A DNA stretch of 64,000 nt, from positions 5,231-69,230 of the forward strand of contig JBBQSZ010000008.1 of assembly GCA_038234745.1 (NCBI GenBank), in the 5' to 3' direction. The translations under genes and the position numbers were made by a program. Source of the stretch: Flavobacteriales bacterium. Its GTDB lineage: Bacteria; Bacteroidota; Bacteroidia; Flavobacteriales; Flavobacteriaceae. Shown piece after piece: positions 30,131-62,523 of this stretch. The first letter of the stretch is position 1. Each line of letters starts with the position of its first letter. Below the pieces are notes generated by a model. That model worked only from the letters and a program-made list of their open reading frames with translations, searched no databases and was not told where the DNA came from.

Positions 30131-30352
30131 TTATTTTTTTGCGTTGTAACGTTTGTCTGGAGTTCCGTCTTTTTTCAAAACAACTTTTGGTTTTTCGGCT
30201 TGTTTGTAGCGTTTGTCAGGAGTTCCGTCTTTTTTCAAAATAGTTTTTGTTTCTGTTTTGGTGGTTTTAGTTGTCTTCGTTGTTCCTTGCTGCGCTGAAC
30301 TGGTCAATGCAAATCCTAAAATAGCGATTAATGCGAATAATAATTTTTTCAT
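30131..30352 (-). CDS. small secreted basic protein with 2 x LKKDGTPDKRY repeats
   Basis: Signal peptide MKKLLFALIAILGFALTSSAQ, a TKT repeats segment and two 20-aa repeats encoded by a 60-nt DNA period. Confidence 0.6.
   Translation of the reverse strand: MKKLLFALIAILGFALTSSAQQGTTKTTKTTKTETKTILKKDGTPDKRYKQAEKPKVVLKKDGTPDKRYNAKK
30146..30240 (-). repeat. direct repeat with 60-nt period (35-nt near-identical cores at 30146-30180 and 30206-30240)
   Basis: gta(a/g)cgtttgtc(t/a)ggagttccgtcttttttcaaaa occurs twice. Confidence 0.85.
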
Positions 30353-33690: not shown

Positions 33691-33830
33691 AGCTATTCCA
33701 GCTATTCGTTACAAGTTTTTTCATTTTCGCCTTTTTTTGTAAGGCAAAAAAAGAGCTTCCTTTGGTCGCTTTTTTTTACCAACAAAAAATAGTCGATCAT
33801 TTCAAAAAGCTTTTCACTGCTATCTGGGCT
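33691..33830 (+). repeat. intergenic repeat element, copy A (termini AGCTATTCCAGCTAT ... CTATCTGGGCT)
   Basis: Shares both termini with the element at 38595-38667 in opposite orientation. The internal sequence differs. Confidence 0.55.
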
Positions 33831-33923
33831 AAAAAAAAGGACATATTGGCATCTTTTTAAACAGGTATGAACTTTGATAAATTAGAGATACAATAGATTA
33901 CGTAAAACTTAGAACAAATAAAT

Positions 33924-38464: not shown

Positions 38465-38594
38465 ATTTTTATTTTATTTATTTTTCATAGGTAATATGTA
38501 ATTCGCAAAAGCTCATTTCATAAAATTCTATAATTTCGTGCAAAGATAGTTTATTATTGCTTAATTGTTGATTGTTTTTGGGTTAGGGTTTCCT

Positions 38595-38667
38595 AGCCCA
38601 GATAGGAACGTTATCCTTTTGTGGCGGTGTTCGCCACAAAAGATAAAGTGGATAGCTGGAAATAGCT
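38595..38667 (-). repeat. intergenic repeat element, copy B (same termini as 33691-33830, inverted), enclosing a 13-bp hairpin
   Basis: The reverse complement reads AGCTATTTCCAGCTAT...CTATCTGGGCT. Internal hairpin atccttttgtggcg / cgccacaaaagat. Confidence 0.55.
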
Positions 38668-46769: not shown

Positions 46770-46850
46770 CATCGTCTCAAAGGGGTGCTCTAAATAACGA
46801 GCTGAGATTATACCCATCGAACCTGAACAGGTAATGCTGTTAAGGGAAAA
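46770..46850 (+). promoter_or_regulatory. TPP (THI-box) riboswitch
   Basis: Conserved core GGGGTGC...GCTGAGA...ACCC...AACCTGAACAGGTAATGCTGTTAAGGGAA, located 100 nt upstream of the TonB-dependent receptor gene. Confidence 0.85.
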
Positions 46851-46949
46851 TTGAATTAAGGATGAAGTGCACGTCATCTGAAAATTCAAAAAATCATTTT
46901 AATTTAACAAAAGAATAATTCCCCCTTTTATTCGTAAAACTATTTACGG

Positions 46950-49115
46950 ATGAACCATTTATTTTTCAAAAAAAGTACAAAGTACAAAGTACAAAGTGCA
47001 AAGAAGAAAGTTTTCCTAACCTCTTTTTTCTTTGTTCTAATCTCTTTTCTCTCAAACGGACAAGAAAAACCAAAAGACACCACGAAAGTTAACCAACTCG
47101 ATGAAGTTTTAGTTTCGGCAGTTCGGGTAACTACAAAAACACCAGTTTCTTTCAGTAATTTAGATAAAAAGGAAATAAAGTTTCGAAATTTAGGACAAGA
47201 CATTCCCATTTTAATGAATTATCTGCCTTCAGTTGTCACCACTTCCGATGCTGGAAATGGTGTAGGTTATACAGGAATTCGTGTTCGTGGTAGTGATGCC
47301 ACTCGGGTAAATGTTACCATCAACGGAATTCCTTACAACGATTCCGAAAGTCACGGAACCTATTGGGTAAATATGCCCGATTTTGCCTCTTCTTTAGAAA
47401 GCATTCAGTTGCAGCGCGGTGTGGGAACTTCTACCAATGGAGCTGGTGCTTTTGGTGCTAGTTTGAATATGTTGACGGAAACGTATTCTCAAAAAGCAAC
47501 GGCTGAAATTTCAAGTTCTTTTGGGAGTTTTAAAACCTTAAAAAACACAGCAAAATTCAGTACGGGTTTGATGAACGACCATTTTGAAATGGCAGGACGT
47601 TTGTCAACATTAAAATCAGATGGCTATGTTGACCGAGCCAGTACCAATTTAAAATCTTATTTTCTGCAAGGAACTTACATAGGAAATACAACCTTAATCA
47701 AAGCTTTAGTTTTTGGAGGAACTGAAAAAACATACCAATCGTGGAACGGAATCGATGGGGAAACATTGGCAACTGATAGAACCTTTAACTCGGCTGGAAT
47801 GTTTACCGATGAAGGGGGGAATACTCGTTTTTATGATAACGAAACCGATAATTACCAACAAGATCATTATCAATTGCATTGGAATGAAAAAATATCTAGT
47901 AATTGGAGTACAAATTTAGCTTTTCATTACACCAAAGGAAAAGGATATTATGAAAATTACAAAGAAGACGCAAAATTTTCGAGTTATGGTTTGACTCCAA
48001 TCGTTATTGATGGAACAACCATAAAAAAAACTGATTTAATTCGTCAGAAATGGTTAGACAATGACTTTTATGGAGCCACTTTTTCAACTAATTACAAAAG
48101 CGAAAAACTAGATATTATCCTTGGCGGTGGCTGGAATAAATATGAGGGAACCCATTTTGGAAAAGTAATTTGGGCTCGATATGCTTCGCAAAGCGAATTG
48201 GGCGATCGTTATTACGAAGACGACGCAACAAAAACTGATGGAAATATTTTTGCAAAAGCTAATTATCAAATAACGGAAAAAATAAGTTTATTTGGCGATT
48301 TACAAGTTCGAAATGTGCATTATTTAGCAGATAGTTACGAAACCGGAAAAGTGAATGACAACTTCAATTTCTTCAATCCAAAGGCAGGTTTGAATTATGA
48401 TATAGACTCGAAAAACAAATTGTACTTTTCGTATGCCAAAGCCAATCGTGAACCCAACCGAACCGATTATGAAAACGGAAATCCAAAACCCGAAAAGTTA
48501 AATGACTTCGAATTGGGTTGGAGATTTACTGCTGAGAAAGTAAAAATCAATTCGAATATTTATTATATGGGGTACAAAGACCAACTGATTTTGACAGGAA
48601 AACTAGACGATGTAGGAAGTCCAATTCGTTCCAATAGTGAAAAAAGTTTTCGTTTGGGATTGGAAGTAGATGCTACAATTGCTGTTTCAGAGCAATTTGT
48701 AATCCGACCTAATTTTACTTTAAGCGCTAATAAAAACGTTGATTTAGCCGTTGCTGGTGAAAATTATGGAACTACAACTATTGCCTATTCACCTTCGGTA
48801 ATTGTAGGAAATATGTTTATCTATAAGCCAATTGAAAGTTTGCAAATTTCATTATTACAAAAAATTGTAGGCAAGCAGTATATGAACAATATTGAATCAA
48901 CCGAAGCAAAACTAGCGAGTTATTTCATAAATGACATCAATCTTAGTTATGAAATAAAACCAAAATCTGTTTTCAAATCCATTATTGTTAAGGGATTAGT
49001 CAATAATGTTTTCGACAAGAAATATGTGTCAAACGGTTACATGTATGATGTTTATCCATATTATTATCCGCAATCAGGAATTAATTTCTTGGCAGGATTG
49101 ACCTTGAAGTTTTAG
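46950..49115 (+). CDS. TonB-dependent receptor (probable thiamine or thiamine-precursor uptake, judged from the riboswitch)
   Basis: Signal peptide, plug domain (DEVLVSAVR, GIRVRGSDATRVNVTINGIPYND) and a barrel ending ...LAGLTLKF. Confidence 0.85.
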   Translation: MNHLFFKKSTKYKVQSAKKKVFLTSFFFVLISFLSNGQEKPKDTTKVNQLDEVLVSAVRVTTKTPVSFSNLDKKEIKFRNLGQDIPILMNYLPSVVTTSDAGNGVGYTGIRVRGSDATRVNVTINGIPYNDSESHGTYWVNMPDFASSLESIQLQRGVGTSTNGAGAFGASLNMLTETYSQKATAEISSSFGSFKTLKNTAKFSTGLMNDHFEMAGRLSTLKSDGYVDRASTNLKSYFLQGTYIGNTTLIKALVFGGTEKTYQSWNGIDGETLATDRTFNSAGMFTDEGGNTRFYDNETDNYQQDHYQLHWNEKISSNWSTNLAFHYTKGKGYYENYKEDAKFSSYGLTPIVIDGTTIKKTDLIRQKWLDNDFYGATFSTNYKSEKLDIILGGGWNKYEGTHFGKVIWARYASQSELGDRYYEDDATKTDGNIFAKANYQITEKISLFGDLQVRNVHYLADSYETGKVNDNFNFFNPKAGLNYDIDSKNKLYFSYAKANREPNRTDYENGNPKPEKLNDFELGWRFTAEKVKINSNIYYMGYKDQLILTGKLDDVGSPIRSNSEKSFRLGLEVDATIAVSEQFVIRPNFTLSANKNVDLAVAGENYGTTTIAYSPSVIVGNMFIYKPIESLQISLLQKIVGKQYMNNIESTEAKLASYFINDINLSYEIKPKSVFKSIIVKGLVNNVFDKKYVSNGYMYDVYPYYYPQSGINFLAGLTLKF

Positions 49116-49132
49116 TTTTTTTAGGTTTTTTT

Positions 49133-49166
49133 AATCCTGATGGTTTAAGCTGTCAGGATTTTTTTG
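49133..49166 (+). terminator. intrinsic terminator after the TonB-dependent receptor gene
   Basis: aatcctga / tcaggatt stem with a 12-nt loop, followed by TTTTT. Confidence 0.7.
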
Positions 49167-49353
49167 TTATAAGTTGTTAATAGAAACGGCGTAAAAGTTA
49201 AAATTTAGTTAAATTTTTAAAATTTTATTTTTAATTGTTTTTTTTTTTTTTTTTTGATATTTACAGTGGTTAACCAAGAAATTATTATAAATTTAAACCA
49301 TTAAAATAATGAAAAAATTAGTATTTACAGCTGTAGCACTAGTCGCATTTAGT
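49153..49353 (+). repeat. promoter-leader cassette, copy 1 (about 200 bp; contains T18 at 49238-49255 and the first 45 nt of the P1 CDS)
   Basis: Near-identical to 52087-52286 apart from a few substitutions and the poly-T length. Confidence 0.9.
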
Positions 49354-49530
49354 GGAGTTACTGTGGCTGGAACAAAAGAAGTAAAAAAAGCAAATTTAGA
49401 AGATAACGATTGCGAATATATTGCAATTTTAGTAATGGATAATTGGTATGGTAGTCAATACTTAACTGATATAGGTTTTTTTTACGCTTATCGTGCTATA
49501 GTAGAAGATTGCGATAGTGGAAGGATGTAA
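49309..49530 (+). CDS. small secreted protein P1 (signal peptide plus two-Cys acidic helical domain), hypothetical
   Basis: MKKLVFTAVALVAFSGVTVAG signal. Mature part has DCEYIAILVMD...YRAIVEDC. Paralogous to P2 and P3. Confidence 0.55.
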   Translation: MKKLVFTAVALVAFSGVTVAGTKEVKKANLEDNDCEYIAILVMDNWYGSQYLTDIGFFYAYRAIVEDCDSGRM

Positions 49531-49600
49531 AATAACATCCGAGGTTGTAGAGCTGATCCCTTCAATAAGATTTTTATCAATAATTATTAAAACAATTAAA

Positions 49601-49897
49601 ATGAAAAATAAAATATTTGCATTACTACTTTTTATAGTGGTTAACGGTGTTTCTAACGCAAAAAATCTAAAGTTAAATGATAAAAAAGTTGATAATATCG
49701 ACATTAAAACAAATTTTTATGGTGCTTCAATTATTGAAAACGAAACAAATAATGTGACCGTAGCGATTGATTGCGATATGTATGCAGTAAATGTTATTGA
49801 GGATTGTTATTTGTGTGATGATTTTTTAAGTGATGTCGGATATATTTATTTGTTTCGGACTATAGTTGAAGATTGCTACAGGCAAAGTTGTCAATAA
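49601..49897 (+). CDS. small secreted protein P2 (paralogue of P1/P3 with extra Cys residues), hypothetical
   Basis: The ATG at 49601 gives the signal peptide MKNKIFALLLFIVVNGVSNA. Contains DCDMYAVNVIED...FRTIVEDC. Confidence 0.55.
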   Translation: MKNKIFALLLFIVVNGVSNAKNLKLNDKKVDNIDIKTNFYGASIIENETNNVTVAIDCDMYAVNVIEDCYLCDDFLSDVGYIYLFRTIVEDCYRQSCQ

Positions 49898-49976
49898 ATT
49901 ATAAAAATTATAATTAAAAATTGACACTTTATTTATTAGTATGGGTTTGCGATAGGACATTTTAATGCTATGTATT

Positions 49977-50681
49977 ATGAGTAAAAAGTGGTTTTTTGGA
50001 TTTATTTTATTTGTATTAATAAATTATTCCTTTAATGGTCAAAATACTACAAGTGGAGAAATCATTTACCAGAAAAAAATGATTATTGACGAAGAGAAAA
50101 TTGCGCCAAAAGACATTCTTTCAAAAGGGATTAAAGATATTTCCAGCAAACATACCTACTTGCTTTTATTTAATGAAAATAGATCCAAATTTATTTTCAA
50201 AGATAATATGGAAAGCGAATCATCTTCGAAAGAAAAGTACTTCAGCAAACTAGCTTCCATCTTATGTGACGATTATAATTATTACTATGACAGATTAAAT
50301 ATGACAGAAGGTATTAAAGAATATGGTGATGGAATTTTAATTGCGGATACTGAAAAATTTGACTGGATTATAACAAAGGAAAATAAATTAATAGGTCAAT
50401 ATTTGTGTTACAAAGCGACATATTTAACTAGTAGGAAAAACTATAAGGGAGTGGAAAATAAAATATTGATTACAGCTTGGTTTGCACCATCCATCCCAAT
50501 TTCATTAGGTCCTAAAAAATATAAAGGTTTGCCAGGATTGATTTTGGAATTACAAGATCAATTGTCAGTGGTTTATGCAACAAATATAAAATTAAAAGAA
50601 ATAATGGATGCAAAAATAGATTTTCCTAAAGGATCCATTATTAGTGAGGAAGAATATAAGAAAAAAGTTTTGTTAAAATAA
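49977..50681 (+). CDS. GLPGLI family protein (paralogue 1)
   Basis: Signal peptide, YLCYKA, AWFAPSIPISLGPKKYKGLPGLILELQ. Confidence 0.8.
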   Translation: MSKKWFFGFILFVLINYSFNGQNTTSGEIIYQKKMIIDEEKIAPKDILSKGIKDISSKHTYLLLFNENRSKFIFKDNMESESSSKEKYFSKLASILCDDYNYYYDRLNMTEGIKEYGDGILIADTEKFDWIITKENKLIGQYLCYKATYLTSRKNYKGVENKILITAWFAPSIPISLGPKKYKGLPGLILELQDQLSVVYATNIKLKEIMDAKIDFPKGSIISEEEYKKKVLLK

Positions 50682-51120
50682 AGTAAATTATACATTCTGC
50701 AGATAAGTCTTGTGGTTTGCATGTTATTAGAGTATAAATAGTTTTATATTTTATTAACTTTATTGAAAGATAGTAGATGGTAGTCTTATTATTTGAAATG
50801 TAACACTGAAAAAGAAGATTTTGAGATATTAGATATACTTGCTATAAAATAATCCTAATAATATTTTTGGAGAACTTCACAAATGTCAGATTTTATCACA
50901 TTAAAAAAGCGTTTAAAAAGACGTGGTTATAATTTTTAAGACTAGCTACAGAACGATTAAAAGGTCGTCTAATAATTTGGCTGAAATCTGGAGTCATTTC
51001 CTTTTAGCTAAATTCAGTGCATATATTGATTTTAGAAATATGTCTTACTACGTTTTTTACTTGTATTTCAGTGACACAAGAAGGGCAAGAATAATTTAAA
51101 AACCAAATTTTCTCACACAA

Positions 51121-51155
51121 CCTGTTAAACATTCTGTCTTTAACAGGTTTGTTTT
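51121..51155 (+). terminator. intrinsic terminator-like hairpin ending 14 nt before the GLPGLI-2 start codon
   Basis: cctgttaaa / tttaacagg 9-bp stem with a 9-nt loop, followed by tttgtttt. Confidence 0.6.
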
Positions 51156-51168
51156 AGATAAATCCTAA

Positions 51169-51876
51169 ATGAAAAATATAACATTAATTTTATTCTTTTT
51201 TTTCTTTTTGACTACTGCAATTAGTCAAAGCAAAAACATTTACGTTTCTTACAAAGTTGAGGTTCAGGATGAAAAAGAAATGTTTAAAACCAATCAAGGT
51301 TTAAGAGCAATGCTTGATTATGCAATTAATAATGACAGTGATTTTTCATTTGGATTGATAATAAAAAAAGATGAGTCTAAATTTTATCAAGAAACGAAAT
51401 TAATTGCTGATGGAAATGCTGGATATGCCAAAGGAGCATTAGCAATGATGAGTTATATAGGGGATGTTTATACTTTAGGTGATTTTTGCTTTAAACAAAA
51501 CCCACTTTTAGGAAATAATACTTACACTAAAATAGATTTGAAAAGTAACTGGAATTTAGTAAACGAAACAAAATTAATAGATGGTTATTTGTGTTATAAA
51601 GCAACAAATATAAAAAGAGTTGATAATGTCGATAAAGTTTTTAATCATCCTGTCATCGCCTGGTTTTGTCCAAAATTACCTTATAAAGTAGGCCCTAATG
51701 GCTATGGTAATTTACCGGGTCTTATTCTTGAACTTCAGGTTCGGAATGTTGTATATAGTGTTAAAAAAGTTACTGTTGATACAGAATTAAATTTTGATAC
51801 TGATTTTCTAAAAAAAGCAAAAATATTATCGCAATCTGAATTAGAATCCGAATATAAAAAATTTAATGAGTATTAA
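51169..51876 (+). CDS. GLPGLI family protein (paralogue 2)
   Basis: Signal peptide MKNITLILFFFFFLTTAISQ, YLCYKA, AWFCPKLPYKVGPNGYGNLPGLILELQ. Confidence 0.8.
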   Translation: MKNITLILFFFFFLTTAISQSKNIYVSYKVEVQDEKEMFKTNQGLRAMLDYAINNDSDFSFGLIIKKDESKFYQETKLIADGNAGYAKGALAMMSYIGDVYTLGDFCFKQNPLLGNNTYTKIDLKSNWNLVNETKLIDGYLCYKATNIKRVDNVDKVFNHPVIAWFCPKLPYKVGPNGYGNLPGLILELQVRNVVYSVKKVTVDTELNFDTDFLKKAKILSQSELESEYKKFNEY

Positions 51877-52086
51877 AATTGATTTTAAAAAAGGTAAGAC
51901 TTCTGTTTTTTAGAATGATACAAGACAATAATCTAGCTATAAATTGGCTTGAAATGTTTTTTAAACTTCCAAAAATGCCTGTTCCTATTATTTTTCGAAG
52001 CATATTATAAAAGTAATATCCAACATTTAAATGTTTAAATTTTTCTTTTTTTTACAACACTTTCCTTCTCTCAAATCCATTCAATT

Positions 52087-52286
52087 TCAGGAATTTTCTG
52101 TTATAAGTTGTTAATAGAAACCGCGTAAAAGTTAAAGTTTAGTTAAATTTTTAAAATTTTATTTTTAATTGGTTTTTTTTTTTTTTTGATATTTACAGTG
52201 GTTAACTAAGAAATTATTTATAAATTTAAACCATTAAAAAAATGAAAAAATTAGTATTTACAGCTATCGCAGTAATAGCATTTAGT
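52087..52286 (+). repeat. promoter-leader cassette, copy 2 (contains T15 at 52173-52187 and the first 45 nt of the P3 CDS)
   Basis: Near-identical to 49153-49353. Confidence 0.9.
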
Positions 52287-52490
52287 TGGGTTTCAATGGC
52301 TAAAACTACAGAATTAAAGATCGTTGAAAATTATGGAATGATTGTTGCTCAGAGTGGTGACTGCGAGACATTCGCTATGGATTTTATAGATGAATATGAT
52401 TCCAATCATCCGGGAGCAGAAATGGAGATATCAAATGCACAAGTAGTTTATCAGCAACTTTTAGATCTGTGTTATATCGAAATGCGTTAA
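52242..52490 (+). CDS. small secreted protein P3 (paralogue of P1/P2), hypothetical
   Basis: MKKLVFTAIAVIAFSWVSMA signal. Contains DCETFAMDFIDE...YQQLLDLC. Confidence 0.55.
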   Translation: MKKLVFTAIAVIAFSWVSMAKTTELKIVENYGMIVAQSGDCETFAMDFIDEYDSNHPGAEMEISNAQVVYQQLLDLCYIEMR

Positions 52491-52510
52491 CATAATCCTA
52501 TTAATAATTA

Positions 52511-52550
52511 GCAAACTAAATAATTTATGTTTAGTTTGCTTTTTAATTTA
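52511..52550 (+). terminator. intrinsic terminator between P3 and GLPGLI-3
   Basis: Perfect 10-bp stem gcaaactaaa / tttagtttgc with a 9-nt loop, followed by a T-rich tract. The ORF-track ATG at 52527 sits in the loop, which argues for the GLPGLI-3 start at 52563. Confidence 0.7.
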
Positions 52551-52562
52551 TTTTTTTTAGCT

Positions 52563-53285
52563 ATGAATAGAAATTGCATTTTTGTTTTAATGACTATTTT
52601 ACTTTCGTTTAATAGTAATAGCCAAATAGTATCAGGTAAAATAATATATAAAATCCAACCTATTGATATTGAATTAGATTCAAAATCAGATAAAATTAAC
52701 AGTTTGAATGAAAAAATATATCAAGAAGCACAAAAACAGTCGTTTACATTAGAATTCAATACAATCAAATCAAGTTTTGTTTTAAATAATATTTTAGAGC
52801 CAAACAATGAAGAAAAATACAGTAAGGGCATTAGCAATTTAGCTTCAATGTTGATAACATCTGGCTACAACTATTATTTAAATCTTAATACGAAAACTGT
52901 TGTACTTCAAAATACAGATGGGCTTTTAATAGAAGAAAAATATGATAAAAAAAATTGGGAAATAACAGCAGAAAGTAAAAAAATTGCAGATTATTTATGT
53001 TATAAAGCAATATACATTAAAAATTATACGGGCAGAAACGGTAAAAGCATAAGTATCCCAATTACTGCGTGGTTTGCTCCAAGCTTACCCTATGGTTATG
53101 GGCCAAAAGATTATAATGGTTTACCAGGTCTAATTCTTGAATTACAGGAACGTAAAACTATATACTATGCATCTTTGATAACTCTTCTATCGAAAGACAA
53201 AGAAATAGAAATAGAGTTCCCAAAAGGGAAAATCGTTACAAAAGAAGAATACGATACAAAAATGAAAGCCCAAATGGGTATGTAA
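52563..53285 (+). CDS. GLPGLI family protein (paralogue 3)
   Basis: MNRNCIFVLMTILLSFNSNSQ signal, YLCYKA, AWFAPSLPYGYGPKDYNGLPGLILELQ. Confidence 0.8.
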   Translation: MNRNCIFVLMTILLSFNSNSQIVSGKIIYKIQPIDIELDSKSDKINSLNEKIYQEAQKQSFTLEFNTIKSSFVLNNILEPNNEEKYSKGISNLASMLITSGYNYYLNLNTKTVVLQNTDGLLIEEKYDKKNWEITAESKKIADYLCYKAIYIKNYTGRNGKSISIPITAWFAPSLPYGYGPKDYNGLPGLILELQERKTIYYASLITLLSKDKEIEIEFPKGKIVTKEEYDTKMKAQMGM

Positions 53286-53296
53286 TTAAAAAACTT

Positions 53297-55984
53297 ATGT
53301 TTAAAATTTCAATAAAGCAAACAATATCTTTTTTGATATTGTTTGCTTCTTTTATTTCATTTGCCCAAACACGCACCATAACGGGAGTAGTCTCTGACGA
53401 TGCAAATATTCCGTTAGAAAACGCAAATATCATCGCTAAACCATTGCAAGAAAAAGCAAGTCTGAAATTTGCAATTGCAGACAATAAAGGGCGTTATAGA
53501 CTTGAATTAGAAACTGATGTAAAATACGAAATAACCGTTTCCTATATAGGTTTTACTGATGAAATTTTAATAGTTGAGTCAAATTCAACAATTAATGCCT
53601 ACGATTTCAAGTTAAAACCCACTGGAGAAATTCTCAAAGAAATAATAATTAAATATGAATACCAACCCGTTGTAATAAAAAAAGACACACTAACATTTGA
53701 TGTAAAAAGTTTTGCCAACGGCAATGAACGCAAAATGAAAGAAATTCTAGAAAAACTACCAGGAGTTGAGGTGGATAAAAAAGGAAATGTTACCGTACAA
53801 GGAAAAAAAGTTACTAAAATGCTGGTGGAAGGCAAGTCGTTCTTCGGCGGAGGTTCTAAACTCGCTGTAGAAAACATTCCAGCCGATGCCTTAGATAAAA
53901 TTGAAGTCATAGATCACTTTAATGAAATTGGATTTATGAAGCAAGTTTCAGATAGTGATGATTTGGCAATGAATGTAAAACTAAAGGCAGATAAGAAAAA
54001 GTTTGTTTTTGGTGATATCGAAGGTGGTGCCGAAGTAGGAAATGCTGATAACGGCTTCTATCTTGCACATGCCGCCTTGTTTTATTATGCTCCAAAAACG
54101 AATTTGAGTTTCATTGGAGATGCAAACAACATAGGAAAAAGCACCTTTACTTTTGAAGATTTAATGCGTTTTGGAGGAGGAATGAGTAGTTATCTTTCGG
54201 GACGAAAATCCTTTACAAATTTGTATTCTTTTACCAATGATAATACTGATGTGGTTCAGAATAAATCACAATTTACAGCTTTTAATTTTAGTCACGACAC
54301 TTCTTCTAAACTATCTATTTCTGGATTTGGGATTTTCTCTAAAGTTTTTACGGTTGCAAAATCTGAAGAAAAAAACGCGTATCTACAAAATAATGTTGTT
54401 ACAAATGAGAATAAACTTAAAAACGGTAATGCTAGATCTGTCCTAGGAATAGGAAATTTAAAATTAGATTATTCTCCCAATACTAAGGAAAAATGGTATT
54501 ACAATGCCCAATATCAATCGAGCACTAATAACTTATTGAATACCATTAATTCATTTACTAATGTGAATTCTAGTCTTTTTGAAATATTAAGTAAAGCGGA
54601 CAATACATCAGTTAAACAATATATGGAGTGGCATAAAAATTATAATCTGCATCATATAACTACACTAGTTATTAATCAAGCATTTGAAAATCAAACTCCG
54701 GACACGAAAATACTTACAAACCAACCTTTTTTTCAAGGCATAATTCCTTTACAAGTAGATGATTTGTATAACATTGATCAGCACAAGAAAGTAAAGAATA
54801 ACAATATCGATGCCCTGTTTAAACATTATTGGATTCTTAATGATTTTAATCATTTATATGCAATTACGGGAAATAATTATATGTCTTCACAATTCAAAAC
54901 TTTGGAAAAACAAATACTCACTGATGGTAGAATTAATGATTTTTCATCGTCAGGTTTTGGAAATGATGTTAAATACCAACTAAATGACGCCAATATTGGT
55001 TTAGAATATAAGTTTAGAATAGGAAAATGGACGAATAAGCCTGGTTTGTATTTGCATTTATATCATCTAACCACAATTCAAACTTCCAATAACTATTCAT
55101 TGTCAAAGACACTTTTTCAACCACTGTGGAATAGTGAATACGAGTTTAATAAATCTGAATCATTAAGCTTTACCTATAAATTGGAGAATAGTTTTCCCGA
55201 AATAAGTCAGCTTGCTAATCGTTTTACTTTACAATCTTATAATGTAGTTTACAAAGGAAATGCGCTTTTACAAAACGAGCACTATCACACAGCAAATTTG
55301 AGATATTCTAAAATAAATATGTATCATGGGCTTACTTTGTTCGCAATGGCAAATTATAATAAAAAATTAAAAACCATTAGGAACGAAATTCAAATAGAAG
55401 GAATTAATCAATTCAATACGCCTAAATTGAGCGATAATCCAGAAACAAATTACAGTATAAATAGCTCGTTTAGTAAAAGAATATACCGTTTTAATTTAAA
55501 GTTAAGTGCTAATTTAAGTTGGTTTAATTATTTGCAAACATTGAATAATATAACAACCTCTAACGATCGCAATAATCAAAAAATGGAAATTGTATTTAAA
55601 ACAGCTTATAAAAAGTGGCCAGATTTTAGTATTGGTTACACAAAAGGATTTAGTCAGTTTTTGGGAATCACAAAATCTACTTTTCAAACAGATGAAATAA
55701 ATTCAGTCTGTGAAGTCGGGTTATTAAAATTCTGGACTTTTAAATTGGAGTACAGCAACCTAAAAAACACAAACAATAATGCTCAGAGTAATTTTTATGA
55801 TCTAGCCAATTCTTCATTGCGTTATCAAAGGAAAAATAGTGCATTTTGTTTTGAGTTAACAGTCAATAATTTATTTAATAATATGGTAAAAAATACGTAT
55901 TCTTTTTCTGATTATGCAATTACTGAGCGAACAACTTATGTTTTACCTCGCGTCTTTTTATTTTCTGTTAGTTATAAATTATAA
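53297..55984 (+). CDS. outer-membrane protein: CarboxypepD_reg-like N-domain, plug-like domain and a large beta-barrel (TonB-dependent-receptor-like)
   Basis: Signal peptide, TITGVVSDDANIPLENANI...VSYIGF, LPGVEVDKKGNVTVQGKKVTKMLVEGK, and a C-terminal beta-signal ...FLFSVSYKL. It starts 12 nt after GLPGLI-3. Confidence 0.8.
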   Translation: MFKISIKQTISFLILFASFISFAQTRTITGVVSDDANIPLENANIIAKPLQEKASLKFAIADNKGRYRLELETDVKYEITVSYIGFTDEILIVESNSTINAYDFKLKPTGEILKEIIIKYEYQPVVIKKDTLTFDVKSFANGNERKMKEILEKLPGVEVDKKGNVTVQGKKVTKMLVEGKSFFGGGSKLAVENIPADALDKIEVIDHFNEIGFMKQVSDSDDLAMNVKLKADKKKFVFGDIEGGAEVGNADNGFYLAHAALFYYAPKTNLSFIGDANNIGKSTFTFEDLMRFGGGMSSYLSGRKSFTNLYSFTNDNTDVVQNKSQFTAFNFSHDTSSKLSISGFGIFSKVFTVAKSEEKNAYLQNNVVTNENKLKNGNARSVLGIGNLKLDYSPNTKEKWYYNAQYQSSTNNLLNTINSFTNVNSSLFEILSKADNTSVKQYMEWHKNYNLHHITTLVINQAFENQTPDTKILTNQPFFQGIIPLQVDDLYNIDQHKKVKNNNIDALFKHYWILNDFNHLYAITGNNYMSSQFKTLEKQILTDGRINDFSSSGFGNDVKYQLNDANIGLEYKFRIGKWTNKPGLYLHLYHLTTIQTSNNYSLSKTLFQPLWNSEYEFNKSESLSFTYKLENSFPEISQLANRFTLQSYNVVYKGNALLQNEHYHTANLRYSKINMYHGLTLFAMANYNKKLKTIRNEIQIEGINQFNTPKLSDNPETNYSINSSFSKRIYRFNLKLSANLSWFNYLQTLNNITTSNDRNNQKMEIVFKTAYKKWPDFSIGYTKGFSQFLGITKSTFQTDEINSVCEVGLLKFWTFKLEYSNLKNTNNNAQSNFYDLANSSLRYQRKNSAFCFELTVNNLFNNMVKNTYSFSDYAITERTTYVLPRVFLFSVSYKL

Positions 55985-56434
55985 TTAATTATAAACCCGC
56001 AATATATCTCCATTGGTCTCGACACGATATTGTTTTAGTGGATATTGTTTGCCAGCACTTTGTCCTGAAAACAAACTATATGCCGCATTATCGCAAGCAC
56101 AAACTACGGTTGTTTTGTCCAATTTCAAAGGATCATTTGCATCCAATTTTTTAAAAGCCATTGTTGAACAACTACTTAAAGCTTGATTGGGACAAGCGGC
56201 GTCAAAAGCAACATAACCACTTCCTGTATTGAAAATAAACAAACCTCGAGCACCTTGATTGGGATAGTAAATGGCATTACTAACATATTTTAGATCCGAA
56301 TAAGCAGGTAAATTCATGTTTATCTCTATTGTGAAAGAATAATTCGGAATATAAGGATTGTTGTTATTCGTAGAATTTGGGCTACAACTAAAAAGCATTG
56401 GAAAAACAATCAGCAAAAGAAAATATTTTTTCAT
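55985..56434 (-). CDS. lipoprotein with a degenerate Rieske-like fold, hypothetical
   Basis: Lipobox LFSCS. AFDAACPNQ ... VVCACDNAAYSLFSGQ resembles Rieske CxH...CxxH spacing but lacks the His ligands. Confidence 0.5.
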   Translation of the reverse strand: MKKYFLLLIVFPMLFSCSPNSTNNNNPYIPNYSFTIEINMNLPAYSDLKYVSNAIYYPNQGARGLFIFNTGSGYVAFDAACPNQALSSCSTMAFKKLDANDPLKLDKTTVVCACDNAAYSLFSGQSAGKQYPLKQYRVETNGDILRVYN

Positions 56435-57561: not shown

Positions 57562-58734
57562 ATGAAGCATGCTTTTGTACTTATCACTTTTTTTTGTTCT
57601 CTTTTAAGTTTTGGTCAAGCCAATGTCGATTACACTTTAATCGACAAACGAATGGCGTCAATTCCAAGTAATTTGACCAATTCTACAGATGAAATCGCAA
57701 GTTATATCAACGCTAATTTCAAAACAGAAAACGATAAAATTCGAGCCGCTTTTTATTGGACAGTATCCAACATTAGTTATGATATCAAAAACAGTAAAGG
57801 GTCTAATTCGATAGAAAGTTCGCAAGAAAAAATCATCAAAACTTTAAAATCCAGAAAAGGAGTTTGCATTGATTATGCTGAGGTTTTTAATGCTATTGCA
57901 AAAAAAATTGGTGTCGAATCTTATGTAATTGATGGATACACGAAGCAAAACGGAAAAATAGATATTCTTGCTCATGCTTGGTGTGCCGCAAAAATTGAGG
58001 GTAAATGGTTTTTCTTTGATCCAACTTGGGGCTCTGGAGGCACAAATAATGGTCAGTTTGTTAAAAAAATAAACAACTATTATTTTAAAACAGACTTTAG
58101 TAAAATCATTGCTTCTCATATTCCATTTGATTATTTATGGCAGTTTTCGAATTATCCGATAACCAATTCCGAATTTTATCAAGGGAAAACTCAATTGGAT
58201 AAAACCAAGAAATATTTTGATTTTGAGAAGGAAATTGCCAGACAAGATAGTCTAAATGAAATTGATCAATTGTTTGAATCAGCTGTAAGAATAGAGAAAA
58301 ACGGGTTAAAAAACGCGATGATTATTGCTAAATATGAGTCAGTAAAGAGTCATTATACTTATTTACAACAAAGCGAAAATATTGACAAACTGAATGCTGT
58401 TGTGATAGAAATGAATGAAGCGGTTGCGTTATTGAATGATTTTATTTTTTATAGAAATAATAAATTCAAGCCTCCTTTTCCAGACGATGAAATTACTAAT
58501 ATGATAGAAAAGCCGAAAGAAAAATTAGTTAAATGCCAAAATGATATTTATAAAATTGGTTTCATAGGAAATGAAAATACGTCTAATTTGAAATCGATTA
58601 AAAGATCAATTGAAACTAATTTGGCGCTATCTGAGCAACACGCATCTTTTGTGAAAACTTATTTGAGTAAGTCGAAATTAGTGAGAAAAACCATGTTTTC
58701 GAAAATAACTTGGGCTGGAATCCCACTGAATTAA
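57562..58734 (+). CDS. transglutaminase-like domain protein
   Basis: Cys-His-Asp core: KGVCIDYAEVF, AHAWCAAK, FFDPTWG. Has a signal peptide. Confidence 0.75.
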   Translation: MKHAFVLITFFCSLLSFGQANVDYTLIDKRMASIPSNLTNSTDEIASYINANFKTENDKIRAAFYWTVSNISYDIKNSKGSNSIESSQEKIIKTLKSRKGVCIDYAEVFNAIAKKIGVESYVIDGYTKQNGKIDILAHAWCAAKIEGKWFFFDPTWGSGGTNNGQFVKKINNYYFKTDFSKIIASHIPFDYLWQFSNYPITNSEFYQGKTQLDKTKKYFDFEKEIARQDSLNEIDQLFESAVRIEKNGLKNAMIIAKYESVKSHYTYLQQSENIDKLNAVVIEMNEAVALLNDFIFYRNNKFKPPFPDDEITNMIEKPKEKLVKCQNDIYKIGFIGNENTSNLKSIKRSIETNLALSEQHASFVKTYLSKSKLVRKTMFSKITWAGIPLN

Positions 58735-59879
58735 ACAGTTTTCTTTAAACTCACTTGCATCGTTGTTCCTTTTCCAATTTCGGAATGCAAAACTTTTATA
58801 GTTCCCTTGTGATATTCTTCGACAATTCGTTTTGTTAAAGATAAACCCAAACCCCAACCTCTTTTTTTGGTCGTAAAACCAGGTTCGAAGACATTTTTGA
58901 ATTGATTCTTTGGAATTCCATTTCCAGTATCCGAAACTTTGATTTTTACAAATTCACCGTCTTCTTCGATGGAAACGGCTAATTTTCCTCTGCCTTTCAT
59001 GGCATCAATAGCGTTTTTTACTAGGTTTTCGATTGTCCAACCGTGTAAAGTTGGGTTAAAGGAAGCAAATATTGGAGACTCAGGGCCATTAAAAGAAAAT
59101 TCTACTTGCTTTGAAAACCGTGATTGCAAATATTTGTACGACTGATGGGTTTCTTCAACGATATCCATGTTTTCGAGTTTGGGTTCTGACCCAATTTTCG
59201 AAAAACGTTCGGTTATAGTTTGCAGGCGTTCAATGTCTTTCTCTATTTCATCGGTTGTTGATTGATCGACATTTTCAGATTTCAGAATTTCAACCCATCC
59301 TACTAATGATGTCAGTGGCGTGCCAATTTGGTGAGCCGTTTCTTTTGCCATTCCTGCCCAAAGCTTGTTTTGGGTTGCCATTTTTGTGCTTTTGTAAAAA
59401 TTATACACTAGTCCCGCAAATAAAAATATGATGAGCAACAAAGCGACTGGGTAATATTTCAGCTTGTTCAGCAAAGCCGAATCTCCGTAGTATAAATATT
59501 GAAATTTTCCAGGAACATACTCAATAACAATGGGCTCATTTTCGCTTTTTAAACCTTGCAAAAAAGTATCGGCTTTTTGTTTGTCCAATACAATTGATTC
59601 GTCAATATTAATCGAATTGATAATTACACCATTCTCTGTGAGCATTATTGGAATAGAAGTATTGTTGCTAAAAATCTGCAGCGGAAGTTCTAAATCAGTG
59701 TTTTCACCAGCATTAATAAGGGTTTTTTGAGCATTGGCCCAAAGATTCATTTTAAGTCGTTCTTCTTGTTTGAAAATTTGGAAAAAAGTATAGGTATTCC
59801 AAAGAATTAAGGAGACGATTAAAAAGGAAGCAAAAATAATGATCCAACGAGTGGTATTTCTTTTTTCGGAAAAATGCAT
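58731..59879 (-). CDS. sensor histidine kinase (two TM helices, periplasmic domain, HisKA plus HATPase_c)
   Basis: H-box ETAHQIGTPLTSL, N-box ENLVKNAIDA, G-boxes DTGNGI and GWGLGLSL. Confidence 0.85.
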   Translation of the reverse strand: MHFSEKRNTTRWIIIFASFLIVSLILWNTYTFFQIFKQEERLKMNLWANAQKTLINAGENTDLELPLQIFSNNTSIPIMLTENGVIINSINIDESIVLDKQKADTFLQGLKSENEPIVIEYVPGKFQYLYYGDSALLNKLKYYPVALLLIIFLFAGLVYNFYKSTKMATQNKLWAGMAKETAHQIGTPLTSLVGWVEILKSENVDQSTTDEIEKDIERLQTITERFSKIGSEPKLENMDIVEETHQSYKYLQSRFSKQVEFSFNGPESPIFASFNPTLHGWTIENLVKNAIDAMKGRGKLAVSIEEDGEFVKIKVSDTGNGIPKNQFKNVFEPGFTTKKRGWGLGLSLTKRIVEEYHKGTIKVLHSEIGKGTTMQVSLKKTV

Positions 59880-60036: not shown

Positions 60037-62523
60037 ATGAAATTAAATCAATTTATTTTAATGGTTGCTTTCTTAGCAACTAGTTCTGTATTTAGCCAAA
60101 TAACAGGCAAAGTAAAAGACGGAGACTATCCGCTAGAATATGCAACTGCAACTTTATTTTCAACTCCAACTAAAACCATTGTTGCTGGTGTAGTTACTGA
60201 TGCTAAAGGAAATTTTAAAATTGAAAATAATGCATCCGGAAATTATTATTTAGAAATTTCTTTCATTGGTTTTGACAAGAAAACGATAAAAGACCTAGTT
60301 ATTACTTCTAAAAATACCAAAATTAATGTAGGAACAATTCAATTAGTAACTGCTGGAACAAAACTAGACGACGTTGTAATTAAGTCTGAAAAAAGAACGG
60401 TTGTAAGTAAAATTGACCGTCAAGTTTATGATGCAAAGTCTTTTCAAAACAGTCAAGGAGGATCTGCAACTGATGTGATAAAAAACCTACCCTCTGTTTC
60501 AATTGATAGTCAAGGCGATGTTAGCGTAAGAGGAACAACAGGATTTATGGTGTTGTTGAATGGGAAACCAACACAAGGAAGCATTTCGGCAATTTTGGGT
60601 CAATTGCCAGCCAATGCAATAGACAGAGTGGAAGTCGTTACGGCGCCTTCAGCAAAATATGACCCTGATGGAAAAGCGGGAATTTTGAATATTATCACAA
60701 AAAAAGGGGCTACCGATGGTGCTTATACGCAACTGAACGTAAAAGGGGGTTTTCCTTCGATAGAAAATTATAACAATAAAGAGAACGCGCAACGGTACGG
60801 AATTGACGGAACGTATAATGTCAAAAAAGAAAAATGGGATATTTCACTCGGTGGAAATTTTGGCAGAAACGACATTCAAGGTCGTAGAGAAGGAGATGTT
60901 TTTACCAACAACGTTACTAAAAATTACAAAACCCAATTTCCATCGGATGGAGAGCGTAGTACAAATGAGTTAAACTATAGCGGACGTTTTACGGTTGATT
61001 ATAATCCAAATGCAGCAGACAATTTTTCGGTAGGTTTCTATGCTGGAAAACGTAAAGTAGAAAGAACGGCTGATATTTTTTACAACAACACCACAACCTC
61101 TCTTACGGACGGAAGTGCAATTAAAAATTTCAATTATTACAATCACAATCTAAGAATTCGTGATGGCGATTTTTCTTTGGGAAGCTTTAATTATTCGCAT
61201 TCTTTTAAAAATAAATCCAAGTTAACAACTTCTTTTTTATACGAATATACTTTGCTTGGCGGGCCAACAACCAACCTGAATTTAGGATATGCCGATCATT
61301 CAACTGTATATCAAGACGAATACAACACCAATGACAATCCGCTTTACGGAACCAGAGCGCAACTGGATTACGAGTTCAAACCCTTTTCTTTTGGAAAATT
61401 AGAAACGGGTTACCAATTTAGAAAACTACAAAACAACGGGAATTTTATATACGAAAGACGGAATGGTACTTCTGGGCTTTTCGAAATTGTACCTGAGTTT
61501 ACGAGTGTGGTTAACTTAGAACGCTTGATTCATTCCGGCTATTTACAATTAAACGGAAGCAAAGCAAAATGGGAATATGCTGCAGGTTTGCGTTTGGAGT
61601 CAATGAATCGTGATTTTTATCTAAAAGGCTATAACCAAACTGCTGAGAATTTAAGCTATGATTATGTAAAATTGTTCCCTTCGGCTTCGGCGCAATACAC
61701 GATGGACAATAATGTAAAATTGAAAGCAGGTTATAGTAAAAGAGTTGATCGTGCACCAAGTTACCAAATGAATCCATTCAAAGAAAGAGAGCATTCTGAA
61801 ACTTTTGAGCAAGGAGATAAAAATTTACGTCCTGAGTTTACCGATTTAATCGAATTGGGAATTAGTAAAAATTTCAAAGGCGGGCATTCCTTTTTTGCAA
61901 CAGCCTATTATAGAAATGTTCAAAACCTGATAAACCGAGTAAATACGCTTTCGTACACAACAGCAGGTGTGCTGAACGATACTATTTTGGATCGTATTTA
62001 TTCGAATGTTGGTCGAGGAAAAACAGTAGGTTTAGAAGTAGGATCACAATTTAAACCAACAACAAAATGGACGAATTTTGTTGGAGCGAACGTATATAAT
62101 TTCAACATTGACGGAAGCTACAACGGACAAAGAATCAATTCGAGTGCCATTCAATATTCTATAAATGCAAATAGCACCTATGCTTTTTCGAGCACAACCT
62201 CTTTGCAGTTTACTATGAATTATTTATCTAAAAAAATTACAGCTCAAGGAGAAGATTCCCGTTTTTACTCGCCAAATTTAAGCTTGCGAAAAACATTTTT
62301 AGACAATCAATTAGTAGCCACCTTGCAATGGCAAAATATCGATATGGGATTGTTGGATACCAATGAGCAACGGATCACAACCTACAAGCCAGGGCAATTT
62401 TACACGACAACTAATTATGTCTACGAAGTAGATATGGTTCTCCTAAATTTGACTTATACCTTTAATAAAACTAAAAACCGCTCTAAATTTATTGATAGTG
62501 AATTTGGTAAAAAAGAATTCTAA
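60037..62523 (+). CDS. outer-membrane protein: CarboxypepD_reg-like N-domain, plug and beta-barrel (TonB-dependent-receptor-like)
   Basis: Signal peptide, ITGKVKDGDYPLEYATATL...ISFIGF, NLPSVSIDSQGDVSVRGTTGFMVLLNGKP, 828 aa. Confidence 0.8.
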   Translation: MKLNQFILMVAFLATSSVFSQITGKVKDGDYPLEYATATLFSTPTKTIVAGVVTDAKGNFKIENNASGNYYLEISFIGFDKKTIKDLVITSKNTKINVGTIQLVTAGTKLDDVVIKSEKRTVVSKIDRQVYDAKSFQNSQGGSATDVIKNLPSVSIDSQGDVSVRGTTGFMVLLNGKPTQGSISAILGQLPANAIDRVEVVTAPSAKYDPDGKAGILNIITKKGATDGAYTQLNVKGGFPSIENYNNKENAQRYGIDGTYNVKKEKWDISLGGNFGRNDIQGRREGDVFTNNVTKNYKTQFPSDGERSTNELNYSGRFTVDYNPNAADNFSVGFYAGKRKVERTADIFYNNTTTSLTDGSAIKNFNYYNHNLRIRDGDFSLGSFNYSHSFKNKSKLTTSFLYEYTLLGGPTTNLNLGYADHSTVYQDEYNTNDNPLYGTRAQLDYEFKPFSFGKLETGYQFRKLQNNGNFIYERRNGTSGLFEIVPEFTSVVNLERLIHSGYLQLNGSKAKWEYAAGLRLESMNRDFYLKGYNQTAENLSYDYVKLFPSASAQYTMDNNVKLKAGYSKRVDRAPSYQMNPFKEREHSETFEQGDKNLRPEFTDLIELGISKNFKGGHSFFATAYYRNVQNLINRVNTLSYTTAGVLNDTILDRIYSNVGRGKTVGLEVGSQFKPTTKWTNFVGANVYNFNIDGSYNGQRINSSAIQYSINANSTYAFSSTTSLQFTMNYLSKKITAQGEDSRFYSPNLSLRKTFLDNQLVATLQWQNIDMGLLDTNEQRITTYKPGQFYTTTNYVYEVDMVLLNLTYTFNKTKNRSKFIDSEFGKKEF

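Follow-up and report, generated by a model that had tools for sequence, protein, structure and literature searches.

The locus at positions 49116-55984 of the window, that is, of the whole 64,000-nucleotide stretch of a Flavobacteriales bacterium (contig JBBQSZ010000008.1) analysed here, carries seven genes on the plus strand: three for small secreted proteins (P1-P3), three for proteins of the GLPGLI family (GLPGLI-1 to -3) and one for an outer-membrane protein (OMP). Judged from sequence comparison, this locus is an instance of a conserved outer-membrane module of the Bacteroidota, in which one or more GLPGLI genes are followed by a single OMP that resembles TonB-dependent transporters (TBDTs). 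The first-pass annotation of this DNA had proposed a functionally linked envelope module, and the proposal is borne out by the linkage of the GLPGLI and OMP genes, by homologues of the small genes beside GLPGLI genes elsewhere, and by a base composition that departs from the surroundings.

For the survey, one genome per species was scanned with a GLPGLI alignment, and the best 80 of at least 596 confirmed loci were fetched with 10-kb flanks (individual loci are given by their L numbers). They come from Flavobacteriia, Cytophagia (Algoriphagus, Roseivirga), Saprospiria (a Saprospiraceae genome) and metagenome-assembled genomes (MAGs) of Bacteroidia. Linkage was counted with hidden Markov models (HMMs) built from the families of the window, in the 74 loci that have at least 2 kb of downstream DNA. 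In 69 of these 74 loci the last GLPGLI gene is immediately followed by a full-length OMP orthologue in the same orientation, usually within tens of bases, and in three of the five exceptions the OMP is split or differently placed. The co-occurrence test proposed earlier for GLPGLI genes and this class of OMP has thus revealed a tight linkage.

The small secreted proteins are confined to one part of the family. They were sought independently of any family model, as open reading frames (ORFs) of 45-110 residues with a signal-peptide-like N-terminus and at least two Cys, ending no more than 200 nt before the gene. Of 159 GLPGLI genes, 36 have such an ORF in front of them, whereas the number among 600 control ORFs is 1 (Fisher p = 4e-25). 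These 36 ORFs all stand before GLPGLI genes of a short type (at most 262 residues; 36/77), and none before the long type (0/82); the span from first to last Cys in them has a median of 33 residues. The small proteins are almost never found without GLPGLI, while GLPGLI is often alone. Small proteins of the same architecture, too diverged for the HMM, were found in Winogradskyella, Tenacibaculum, Polaribacter, Leeuwenhoekiella, Haloflavibacter and the Saprospiraceae genome. On a Flavobacterium plasmid with distant GLPGLI proteins, the OMP of the family is accompanied by three two-Cys small proteins that share their signal peptide, a pair of GLPGLI genes and a fourth small protein; on a Flammeovirga plasmid, also with a distant GLPGLI, a Cys-rich signal-peptide protein of 58 residues is followed by GLPGLI and then by an OMP-like protein. 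The order of small ORF, GLPGLI and OMP that had been noted for the window does recur, but it is better put as a repeated unit of small ORF and GLPGLI, followed by one OMP.

Unbiased clustering of the neighbouring genes gave one functionally suggestive recurrent neighbour, namely an operon of an OmpR-type response regulator and a histidine kinase of ~500 residues. It stands divergently, 85-720 nt upstream of the first long-type module gene, in 25 loci (L017-L082), including those of Cytophagia and Bacteroidia MAGs, and it is absent from the window. The histidine kinase at 58731-59879 of the window was considered as a counterpart of the long-type-linked kinase and rejected, since the two are not orthologous. 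No inner-membrane transporter or catabolic enzyme was found by this clustering to recur beside the module. A signal-peptide protein of ~120 residues, which has 0-1 Cys and is matched by no Pfam model, immediately precedes the first long-type GLPGLI gene in L028, L032, L036, L038, L053, L055, L056, L065 and L074, the genomes including Polaribacter, Winogradskyella and Tenacibaculum; as a universal third component this family was rejected, being present in 9 of the 51 long-type loci only.

The membership of all three ~235-residue window proteins in the GLPGLI family is certain from profile searches. TIGR01200 matches GLPGLI-1 with 121.5 bits (E 4e-35), GLPGLI-2 with 106.8 bits (E 1e-30) and GLPGLI-3 with 132.2 bits (E 2e-38), the curated cutoff being 50 bits for a full-length match, and PF09697 (Porph_ging; cutoff 25 bits) matches them at 48-66 bits. 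This confirms the family named in the first pass, where it had been recognised from the motifs YLCYKA and AWFxPxxPxxxGPxxYxxLPGLILELQ. Both motifs are invariant among the three proteins, as is LPGLILELQ in full, and P188, G189 and L190 are invariant in 121 sequences. The N-terminal half of the alignment is less conserved than the C-terminal half (0.36 vs 0.53). A type I signal peptide is present in the GLPGLI proteins as well as in the OMP, the first residue after it being Gln (...FNG/Q in GLPGLI-1 and ...SNS/Q in GLPGLI-3, the slash marking the cleavage site); a lipobox is absent from all of them. The AlphaFold2 model of GLPGLI-3, with a predicted local distance difference test (pLDDT) of 88.9, is bowl-shaped and consists of a curved antiparallel sheet and two helices. 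Foldseek places it closest to the bowl domain at the N-terminus of PNGase F-II (E 2e-6, template modelling (TM) score 0.52), and weaker matches are to ependymin-related (LolA-like) half-barrels at TM ~0.3; LolA and LolB are not among its top structural matches. GLPGLI-2, which is an orphan without a small ORF upstream, has a weak match to PNGase_F-II_N (PF22252). A sequence search of the PDB gave nothing useful for GLPGLI. The possibility that long-type GLPGLI proteins contain a fused equivalent of the small protein ("Rosetta stone") was rejected, the extra length being a charged low-complexity insert and a basic tail. The family (TIGR01200, PF09697) comprises 11,156 clusters at 50% identity. 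We found no functional study of it in the searchable literature, and neither there nor in PADLOC does the locus have an already known role.

The OMP has a signal peptide (...SFA/Q), a CarboxypepD_reg-type N-terminal extension (residues 27-117), a plug-like region (residues ~124-240) and a predicted barrel (residues ~340-895). Between the extension and the plug-like region lies a TonB-box-like motif, L-K-E-I-I-I-K (residues 113-119), which is conserved in the orthologues as L-[DK]-E-[VI]-x-[IV]-[VK] (L-D-E-V-E-I-V) at the position of the SusC-like TonB box; the plug motifs after it are also conserved. Orthologues at 70-84% identity are found throughout Flavobacterium, F. johnsoniae included. 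When 36 diverse orthologues from the fetched loci were scanned one by one against Pfam, CarboxypepD_reg was found in all 36, Plug in 16 and OMP_b-brl_3 in 11. Residues 4-205 of the OMP are 30% identical to the CarboxypepD_reg and Plug region of a second OMP in the window (60037-62523), residues 120-205 being ~30% identical to its Plug region. The OMP profile matches the isolated SusC N-terminal extension (PDB 9hfj, E 2e-7), although the PDB sequence search gave nothing useful beyond such extension domains. The AlphaFold2 model of the OMP has 132 significant Foldseek matches, all of them TBDTs, the top ones with TM-scores of 0.2-0.3. It is on the alignment to the second OMP, the Pfam matches of the orthologues, 9hfj, the TonB-box-like motif and the Foldseek matches that we call the protein TBDT-like. 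Its assignment to a diverged TBDT-like subfamily with a SusC-type extension, a plug and an OMP_b-brl_3-type barrel is supported at the level of the family and incomplete for the window protein.

Outer-membrane beta-barrels usually end in an aromatic residue; in this subfamily the C-terminal residue is Leu in 31 and Ile in 4 of the 36 orthologues (the last sense codon of the window gene is at 55982-55984). The second OMP (plus strand) has clear CarboxypepD_reg, Plug and OMP_b-brl_3 domains (E 6e-74) and resembles the first over the N-terminal 200 residues only. It is of a different subfamily and, as had been pointed out, lacks a GLPGLI partner. Its domain architecture is that of Fjoh_0545 of F. 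johnsoniae, which is induced by phosphate starvation (PMC8115612).

P1-P3 can be aligned with each other. They share an MKK-hydrophobic signal peptide of the Sec type (MKKLVFTA...A/x) and Cys residues at the start and the end of the mature part, which is acidic and hydrophilic in all three (isoelectric point, pI, 4.0-4.2; net charge -5 to -9). The earlier description as two-Cys proteins is correct for P1 and P3 (mature pI 4.2 and 4.05) but not for P2, which has five Cys (pI 4.2) and a C-terminal half that is paralogous to P1. P1 has homologues at 74-84% identity, and P3 is 86% identical to its orthologue in L087, with a ratio of nonsynonymous to synonymous substitutions (dN/dS) of ~0.30, as expected for a gene under purifying selection. 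A cassette of P1-like, P2-like and GLPGLI-1-like genes recurs on another contig. This recurrence and the dN/dS of P3 identify the small ORFs as real genes, and their homologues adjoin GLPGLI genes in related genomes, contrary to a possibility raised in the first pass. Among 21 small genes of Flavobacterium the signal peptides are 64% identical on average and the mature parts 22%; these genes combine a conserved putative promoter and signal peptide with hypervariable acidic mature parts. Searches against Pfam, NCBIfam and PADLOC gave no matches for the small proteins, the homologues being the 21 found by sequence only. Inspection of their sequences shows neither a lipobox nor an extra C-terminal domain as in the type IX secretion system (T9SS), and therefore no known Bacteroidota route to the outside is evident. 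P1-P3 also lack a double-glycine motif, and there is no ATP-binding cassette (ABC) exporter in the locus. One further match of the small-protein HMM in the window (30131-30352, minus strand) was rejected, as it reflects signal-peptide similarity only, to an unrelated basic repeat protein.

The comparison of loci defines a cassette as a unit with its own predicted promoter, a small acidic Sec-exported protein that has two Cys or at times more, and a partner GLPGLI gene; a terminator-like hairpin is often included. Such cassettes are found in Flavobacterium and several other genera. The similarity between small proteins tracks that of the adjacent GLPGLI proteins (Spearman 0.28, vs 0.14 ± 0.04 with partners shuffled within loci; 0 of 2000 shuffles reach it), which indicates that the pairs are inherited as units, beyond species relatedness. 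Stacks of two to seven cassettes occur in F. xanthum (L007), F. aureirubrum (L024), F. tegetincola (L009) and an uncultured Flavobacterium MAG (L014). The short ORFs between stacked cassettes were found to be copies of the first ~50 OMP codons, 76-88% identical to the 5' end of the OMP gene of the same locus (L007, L009, L024), and at the opposite border an insertion has left its mark in L004, where a C-terminal fragment of the upstream TonB receptor is present in duplicate. These remnants argue that cassettes stack, or are replaced, by recombination, with the 5' end of the OMP gene and the promoter/signal-peptide region as homology arms.

In the window, the cassette next to the OMP gene bears the marks of such an event. 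P3 is at most 51% identical to its counterparts in the syntenic chromosomal relatives L002, L004 and L007, compared to 86% for L087/L088, and for GLPGLI-3 the corresponding values are 53-64% and 85-88%. The first ~150 nt of the OMP gene are mosaic: nucleotides 1-150 are 88-90% identical to L087/L088 and 60-69% to L002, L004 and L007, or 57-69% over the syntenic relatives, while over the rest of the gene the identity to L087/L088 is about equal to, or lower than, that to L002, with L002, L004 and L007 about equal or higher. The synonymous divergence (dS) from L087/L088 is 0.20 for P3, 0.25-0.29 for GLPGLI-3 (from a codon alignment) and 0.65 for OMP codons 1-60, and is saturated for the rest of the OMP. 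By this pattern, the proximal cassette of the window has recently been exchanged with L087/L088-type copies. In L087 and L088 themselves the whole module, including an OMP 74% identical to that of the window, lies directly after genes for RteC, an HTH_17 excisionase-like protein and a DnaC/IstB-like ATPase, a gene order which we take to be the context of a CTnDOT-type mobile element. The statement that no regulator or mobility gene explains the locus holds within the window but not elsewhere, given these neighbours and the divergent two-component system of the long-type loci. GLPGLI is almost absent from viral (phage) contigs, with 1 weak match, and rare on plasmids; a phage or defence-system origin was rejected on this ground and because none of the seven proteins has a PADLOC match.

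Two observations on other contents of these sites can be added. In L004 (2474-4435) the same promoter element is followed by a 203-residue ORF with a Cys-rich C-terminus (CNCNWTCGLYAGGSTSKCKTTTSGCGFLWAFDC), then by a membrane-anchored thioredoxin (CxxC) and the TonB-receptor C-terminal fragment; a cassette for a disulfide-rich peptide may have entered the same hotspot here. In L002 (5249-5794) a 144-residue signal-peptide protein ending ...RYTFDKQ, possibly a small beta-barrel OMP, is found behind the same element and ahead of a GLPGLI gene.

The features of the locus are collected in Table 1. All seven ORFs lie at the coordinates given for them in the first pass, with one correction: GLPGLI-3 and the OMP gene are separated by 11 nt and not 12. 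The duplicated promoter cassette described there is real and spans ~230 nt (49153-49385 vs 52087-52318, 82-95% identity), covering the upstream region and the signal-peptide codons of P1 and P3. The right arm of the hairpin of the TonB receptor gene overlaps the start of copy 1, in which TGGTTAACCA overlaps the putative -33 element (GTG, 49266-49268), followed by a 19-nt spacer and a putative -7 box, TAAATTTA, at 49288-49295. The element upstream of the small genes is conserved in several Flavobacterium species and reads, from 5' to 3', GTTAA-N6-7-GTTAA, T13-18, TGGTTAACCA overlapping TTG (-33), a 19-nt spacer, TAAATTTA (-7), and ATG ~20 nt further on. The consensus of Bacteroidota promoters is TTG-N19-TAnnTTTG, and we infer that the element is a promoter of this kind. 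A scan for sigma-70 promoters was uninformative (45 sites found vs 46 expected). The T tract, T18 and T15 in the window, is T13-T15 in most conserved copies of the relatives and shorter or interrupted in a few; its length is a candidate for slipped-strand variation of promoter strength. A 15-mer of the promoter, TTTACAGTGGTTAAC, recurs with one mismatch at 49631-49645 within the signal-peptide codons of P2, where it may be a remnant of recombination.

Table 1. Genes and other sequence features of the locus (positions in the window).
Feature	Position	Strand	Description
Terminator-like hairpin of upstream TonB receptor gene	49133-49160	+	12-bp stem then T run; left boundary of the locus
Promoter cassette copy 1 (putative)	49153-49308	+	GTTAA direct repeats, T18 tract 49238-49255, palindrome TGGTTAACCA 49267-49276
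P1	49309-49530	+	73-residue small secreted protein
P2	49601-49897	+	98-residue small secreted protein
GLPGLI-1	49977-50681	+	TIGR01200
Spacer	50682-51168		487 nt; 11-bp inverted repeat just before GLPGLI-2
GLPGLI-2	51169-51876	+	TIGR01200
Degraded relic of GLPGLI 3'-end/OMP 5'-end junction	52006-52074	+	74% over 77 nt to L002 7975-8051
Promoter cassette copy 2 (putative)	52087-52241	+	T15 tract 52173-52187, palindrome variant TGGTTAACTA 52199-52208
P3	52242-52490	+	82-residue small secreted protein
Terminator-like hairpin between P3 and GLPGLI-3	52510-52540	+	13-bp stem then T run
GLPGLI-3	52563-53285	+	TIGR01200
OMP	53297-55984	+	895-residue TonB-dependent-transporter-like outer-membrane protein
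Perfect 14-bp hairpin in OMP codons 7-18	53315-53348	+	followed by T-rich run; z = -5.7

The hairpin after P3, noted as a terminator, is indeed present and possibly acts as a leaky one. The spacer after GLPGLI-1 had been called free of ORFs; it holds one ORF of 58 residues with a GTG start (50923-51099), but this ORF lacks a signal peptide and is without homologues in the fetched loci, so that the spacer is effectively gene-free. No decayed small gene, GLPGLI or OMP fragment was found in it by HMM, blastn or tblastx comparison with all fetched loci. The relic before copy 2 is similar to a segment of L002 that spans the GLPGLI/OMP junction, and it also matches positions 3-26 of the OMP HMM weakly; it is a scar of cassette stacking with intact counterparts in L007, L009, L014 and L024. 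The strong hairpin inside the OMP gene has equivalents in two Cytophagia orthologues and none in most others, and was rejected as a conserved attenuator for lack of consistent conservation. An Rfam leader model matches there weakly (E 0.044), which probably reflects just the hairpin.

The locus was said to be richer in AT than its flanks, which had been judged by eye with a GC scan proposed. The computed GC content of 49116-53296 is 26.6%, compared to 33.6% for the window, so that the composition does depart from that of the surroundings. GLPGLI-1 to -3 have the three lowest GC contents (27.1-27.3%) of the 42 window ORFs of at least 200 residues (34.3 ± 2.5%), and the OMP gene (30.2%) has the fourth lowest. 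In close relatives the locus occupies the same place, between the TonB receptor and the convergent gene. As to the term "accessory locus", it is apt for the cassette content, which is variable and horizontally exchanged, but not for the position, nor for the GLPGLI-OMP core, which is kept across classes of Bacteroidota.

On the right, a convergent lipoprotein gene (55985-56434, minus strand) abuts the stop codon of the OMP gene with zero gap. Its orthologue has a weak Rieske_2 match and has stayed in place in the close relatives L002-L006, whereas F. johnsoniae (L001) lacks it there, and the gene is therefore considered to lie outside the module. On the left, the TonB receptor gene (46950-49115) had been called riboswitch-controlled. 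This is supported by an upstream element resembling the thiamine pyrophosphate (TPP) riboswitch (46772-46866, plus strand), which scores 43.6 bits (E 3e-6) and so falls below the Rfam gathering score of 54.3 and is not found at that threshold. The element suggests a thiamine-related receptor, which stands beside PnuC, NadR-like and ArfB genes. Elsewhere in the window, Flavo-1 RNA matches above the gathering score were obtained at 38591-38666 (plus strand, 73 bits) and 33691-33834 (minus strand, 53 bits).

The mechanism that we favour, with a probability of roughly 40%, is export: cognate GLPGLI adaptors would hand the polymorphic small proteins to a shared, TonB-powered OMP. In this scheme both the small protein and the GLPGLI protein would reach the periplasm by Sec, where each small protein would be bound by its cognate GLPGLI protein. 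Specificity would come from the variable N-terminal half of the latter, and docking to the OMP from the conserved C-terminal half (YLCYKA, AWFxPxxP, GLPGLILE). The small protein would be delivered by the complex to the shared OMP, which, energised through TonB, would pass it through the outer membrane to the exterior, where the polymorphic small proteins would take part in interactions between strains. Export is favoured because the small proteins have no other evident way out, because many cargo-adaptor pairs share one channel, and because there is a precedent for TBDT-dependent secretion, the Myxococcus TBDT Oar being required for secretion of the protease PopC (PMC6434023). Moreover, the modules beside mobile-element genes carry their own OMP, which argues that the producer cell needs it. 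In its full form, which we hold only tentatively, the proposal makes GLPGLI proteins the periplasmic adaptors of a previously unrecognised TonB-powered Bacteroidota pathway that exports polymorphic disulfide-bonded small proteins for strain-level competition or recognition, and that would gain new specificities through cassettes of promoter, small gene and adaptor recombining into the 5' end of the channel gene.

It is important to note that several points weigh against this reading. The great majority of TBDTs serve import, not export. About half of the GLPGLI-OMP loci, those of the long type, have no adjacent small protein, so the core must have a role that needs none, and this is the main weakness of every cassette-centred model. 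Binding, the direction of transport and TonB dependence are what we infer, and the co-variation of the partners may be the co-inheritance of linked genes alone. The helical-hairpin and disulfide structure of the small proteins is putative. For the OMP of the window itself, Plug (PF07715) and the PF14905 barrel lie below the Pfam thresholds (E < 0.01), and its AlphaFold2 model is of low confidence (pLDDT 58, from an alignment of 70-84%-identical sequences); the earlier reading as a protein of CarboxypepD_reg, plug-like and barrel parts holds through the orthologues, the alignment to the second OMP and the low-confidence fold match, but not through Pfam plug or barrel matches of its own. The 80 surveyed loci, finally, are those closest to GLPGLI-3 within a much wider family. 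For the first-pass idea of a module of cargo or ligand, partner and channel, this means that the functional linkage is statistically supported, whereas the three roles stay conditional.

Many bacteriocins use TBDTs for entry, and the small proteins could be toxins that enter competitors via the TBDT-like OMP, with periplasmic GLPGLI proteins as cognate immunity proteins sequestering them and arrays accumulating toxins and orphan immunity genes. This would account for the combination of hypervariable mature parts with a signal peptide and promoter that are conserved, for the inheritance of small protein and GLPGLI as cognate pairs, for orphan GLPGLI genes being common and orphan small genes rare, and for cassettes that are stacked or displaced, recently exchanged and found beside mobile-element genes; the Cys-rich peptide ORF and membrane thioredoxin behind the promoter element of L004 point the same way, as does the entry of bacteriocins through TBDTs (PMC6434023). 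We nevertheless consider it unlikely, since the mature proteins are strongly acidic and hydrophilic, unlike typical membrane-active bacteriocins, since a double-glycine leader, an ABC/C39 exporter and a lysis gene are all lacking, as are PADLOC, Pfam or NCBIfam matches of the small proteins, and since GLPGLI-OMP pairs without a small protein are widespread. The OMP genes carried by mobile-gene-linked modules would also be unexpected if the OMP were just the receptor of the victim. Alternatively, the OMP may be an ordinary TonB-dependent importer of a possibly hydrophobic ligand, GLPGLI a periplasmic acceptor or a binder of the N-terminal extension, and the small proteins lineage-specific accessories or modulators, an explanation to which we give the same low weight. 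The TBDT features of the OMP, the conservation of the core across classes and the likeness of the GLPGLI bowl to ligand-binding half-barrels (ependymin, LolA-like) agree with uptake. So do the divergent OmpR-type operons at 25 long-type loci, as in inducible uptake systems, the five GLPGLI genes listed as direct PhoP targets in Riemerella (PMC9603813), and the induction of a PF14905-type TBDT by phosphate starvation in F. johnsoniae (PMC8115612). What uptake leaves unexplained is the polymorphism of the small proteins, their dedicated strong promoter, the co-variation and the recombinational turnover, and no inner-membrane transporter or catabolic enzyme recurs beside the module.

The same structural likeness to ependymin and LolA-like folds, weak as it is, would also allow a role in envelope maintenance, in which GLPGLI, as a LolA-like carrier, brings lipids or lipoproteins to the OMP to be inserted or exposed at the surface, and the small proteins are clients or regulators. 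All components are envelope proteins, and the module is under two-component regulation in other taxa, but the ependymin matches reach TM ~0.3 only, the best match is instead the PNGase F-II domain, and horizontal exchange, low GC and a variable copy number are hard to reconcile with housekeeping; this makes such a role quite improbable. A chance gene order, with small ORFs that are no genes at all, can hardly be credited. The lack of Pfam and NCBIfam matches and the mere 21 homologues found by sequence would fit, but the idea is already contradicted by the enrichment (36/159 vs 1/600), by the conserved promoter and signal peptide, by the dN/dS of P3, and by synteny, which extends across species and to distant lineages whose small proteins are unrelated.

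It is instructive to compare the module with known systems. Like SusC/SusD and BtuB/BtuG, it has a TBDT-like OMP with a CarboxypepD_reg-type extension and a dedicated, co-transcribed, non-enzymatic partner. Unlike the surface lipoproteins SusD and BtuG, however, GLPGLI proteins have ~240 residues, a type I signal peptide and no lipobox, and are encoded upstream and not downstream; the barrel is of a diverged OMP_b-brl_3 type, there are up to seven partner genes per OMP, and polymorphic small secreted proteins are added. No SusD-family Pfam match was found on P1-P3, the GLPGLI proteins, the OMP or the convergent lipoprotein, and only the N-terminal extension resembles SusC. Oar-PopC of Myxococcus xanthus offers a functional parallel in that a TBDT-family protein is implicated in the outward passage of a Sec-exported periplasmic protein (PMC6434023). 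The cargo of Oar, in contrast, is a large protease encoded elsewhere and not a cassette-encoded small protein. We know of no GLPGLI-like adaptor for Oar. Bacteriocin-immunity regions such as the pneumococcal blp locus and the orphan arrays of contact-dependent inhibition (CDI) and Rhs systems appear to share the conserved promoter and leader, the hypervariable peptides, the cognate partner and the horizontal exchange, as well as displaced cassettes with fragments of a conserved anchor gene. Here, however, a Sec signal peptide takes the place of the double-glycine leader, the partner has a periplasmic bowl fold, and the anchor is a TBDT-like OMP downstream of the cassettes; to our knowledge no toxic activity of the module has been reported. 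The PNGase F-II bowl domain (PDB 4R4X, 4R4Z; PF22252), to which GLPGLI-3 is structurally closest, is fused to a glycosidase, whereas GLPGLI proteins are stand-alone and linked to an OMP. With no SusD, no double-glycine leader or ABC exporter and no known toxin, the module is a member of none of these systems: it is organised like a TBDT with a dedicated partner (SusCD, BtuBG) and evolves like polymorphic cassette loci. What is new here is a TBDT-partner system with a new class of partner and an unprecedented cassette organisation.

For the GLPGLI family, these results provide a fixed genomic partner, in the form of a distinct TBDT-like subfamily, and a fold. They also separate two architectural subtypes, a short one with polymorphic small secreted proteins and a long one with a divergent two-component system. 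The stacking and exchange of the cassettes are typical of systems under diversifying selection. Together this gives a first testable handle on the function of GLPGLI, for which tractable Flavobacterium species are well suited. If export is true, the module would be a second case in which a TBDT secretes protein, and the first in which dedicated adaptors take part, and the small proteins would form a new class of polymorphic secreted factors in Bacteroidota of environmental and fish-pathogen lineages.

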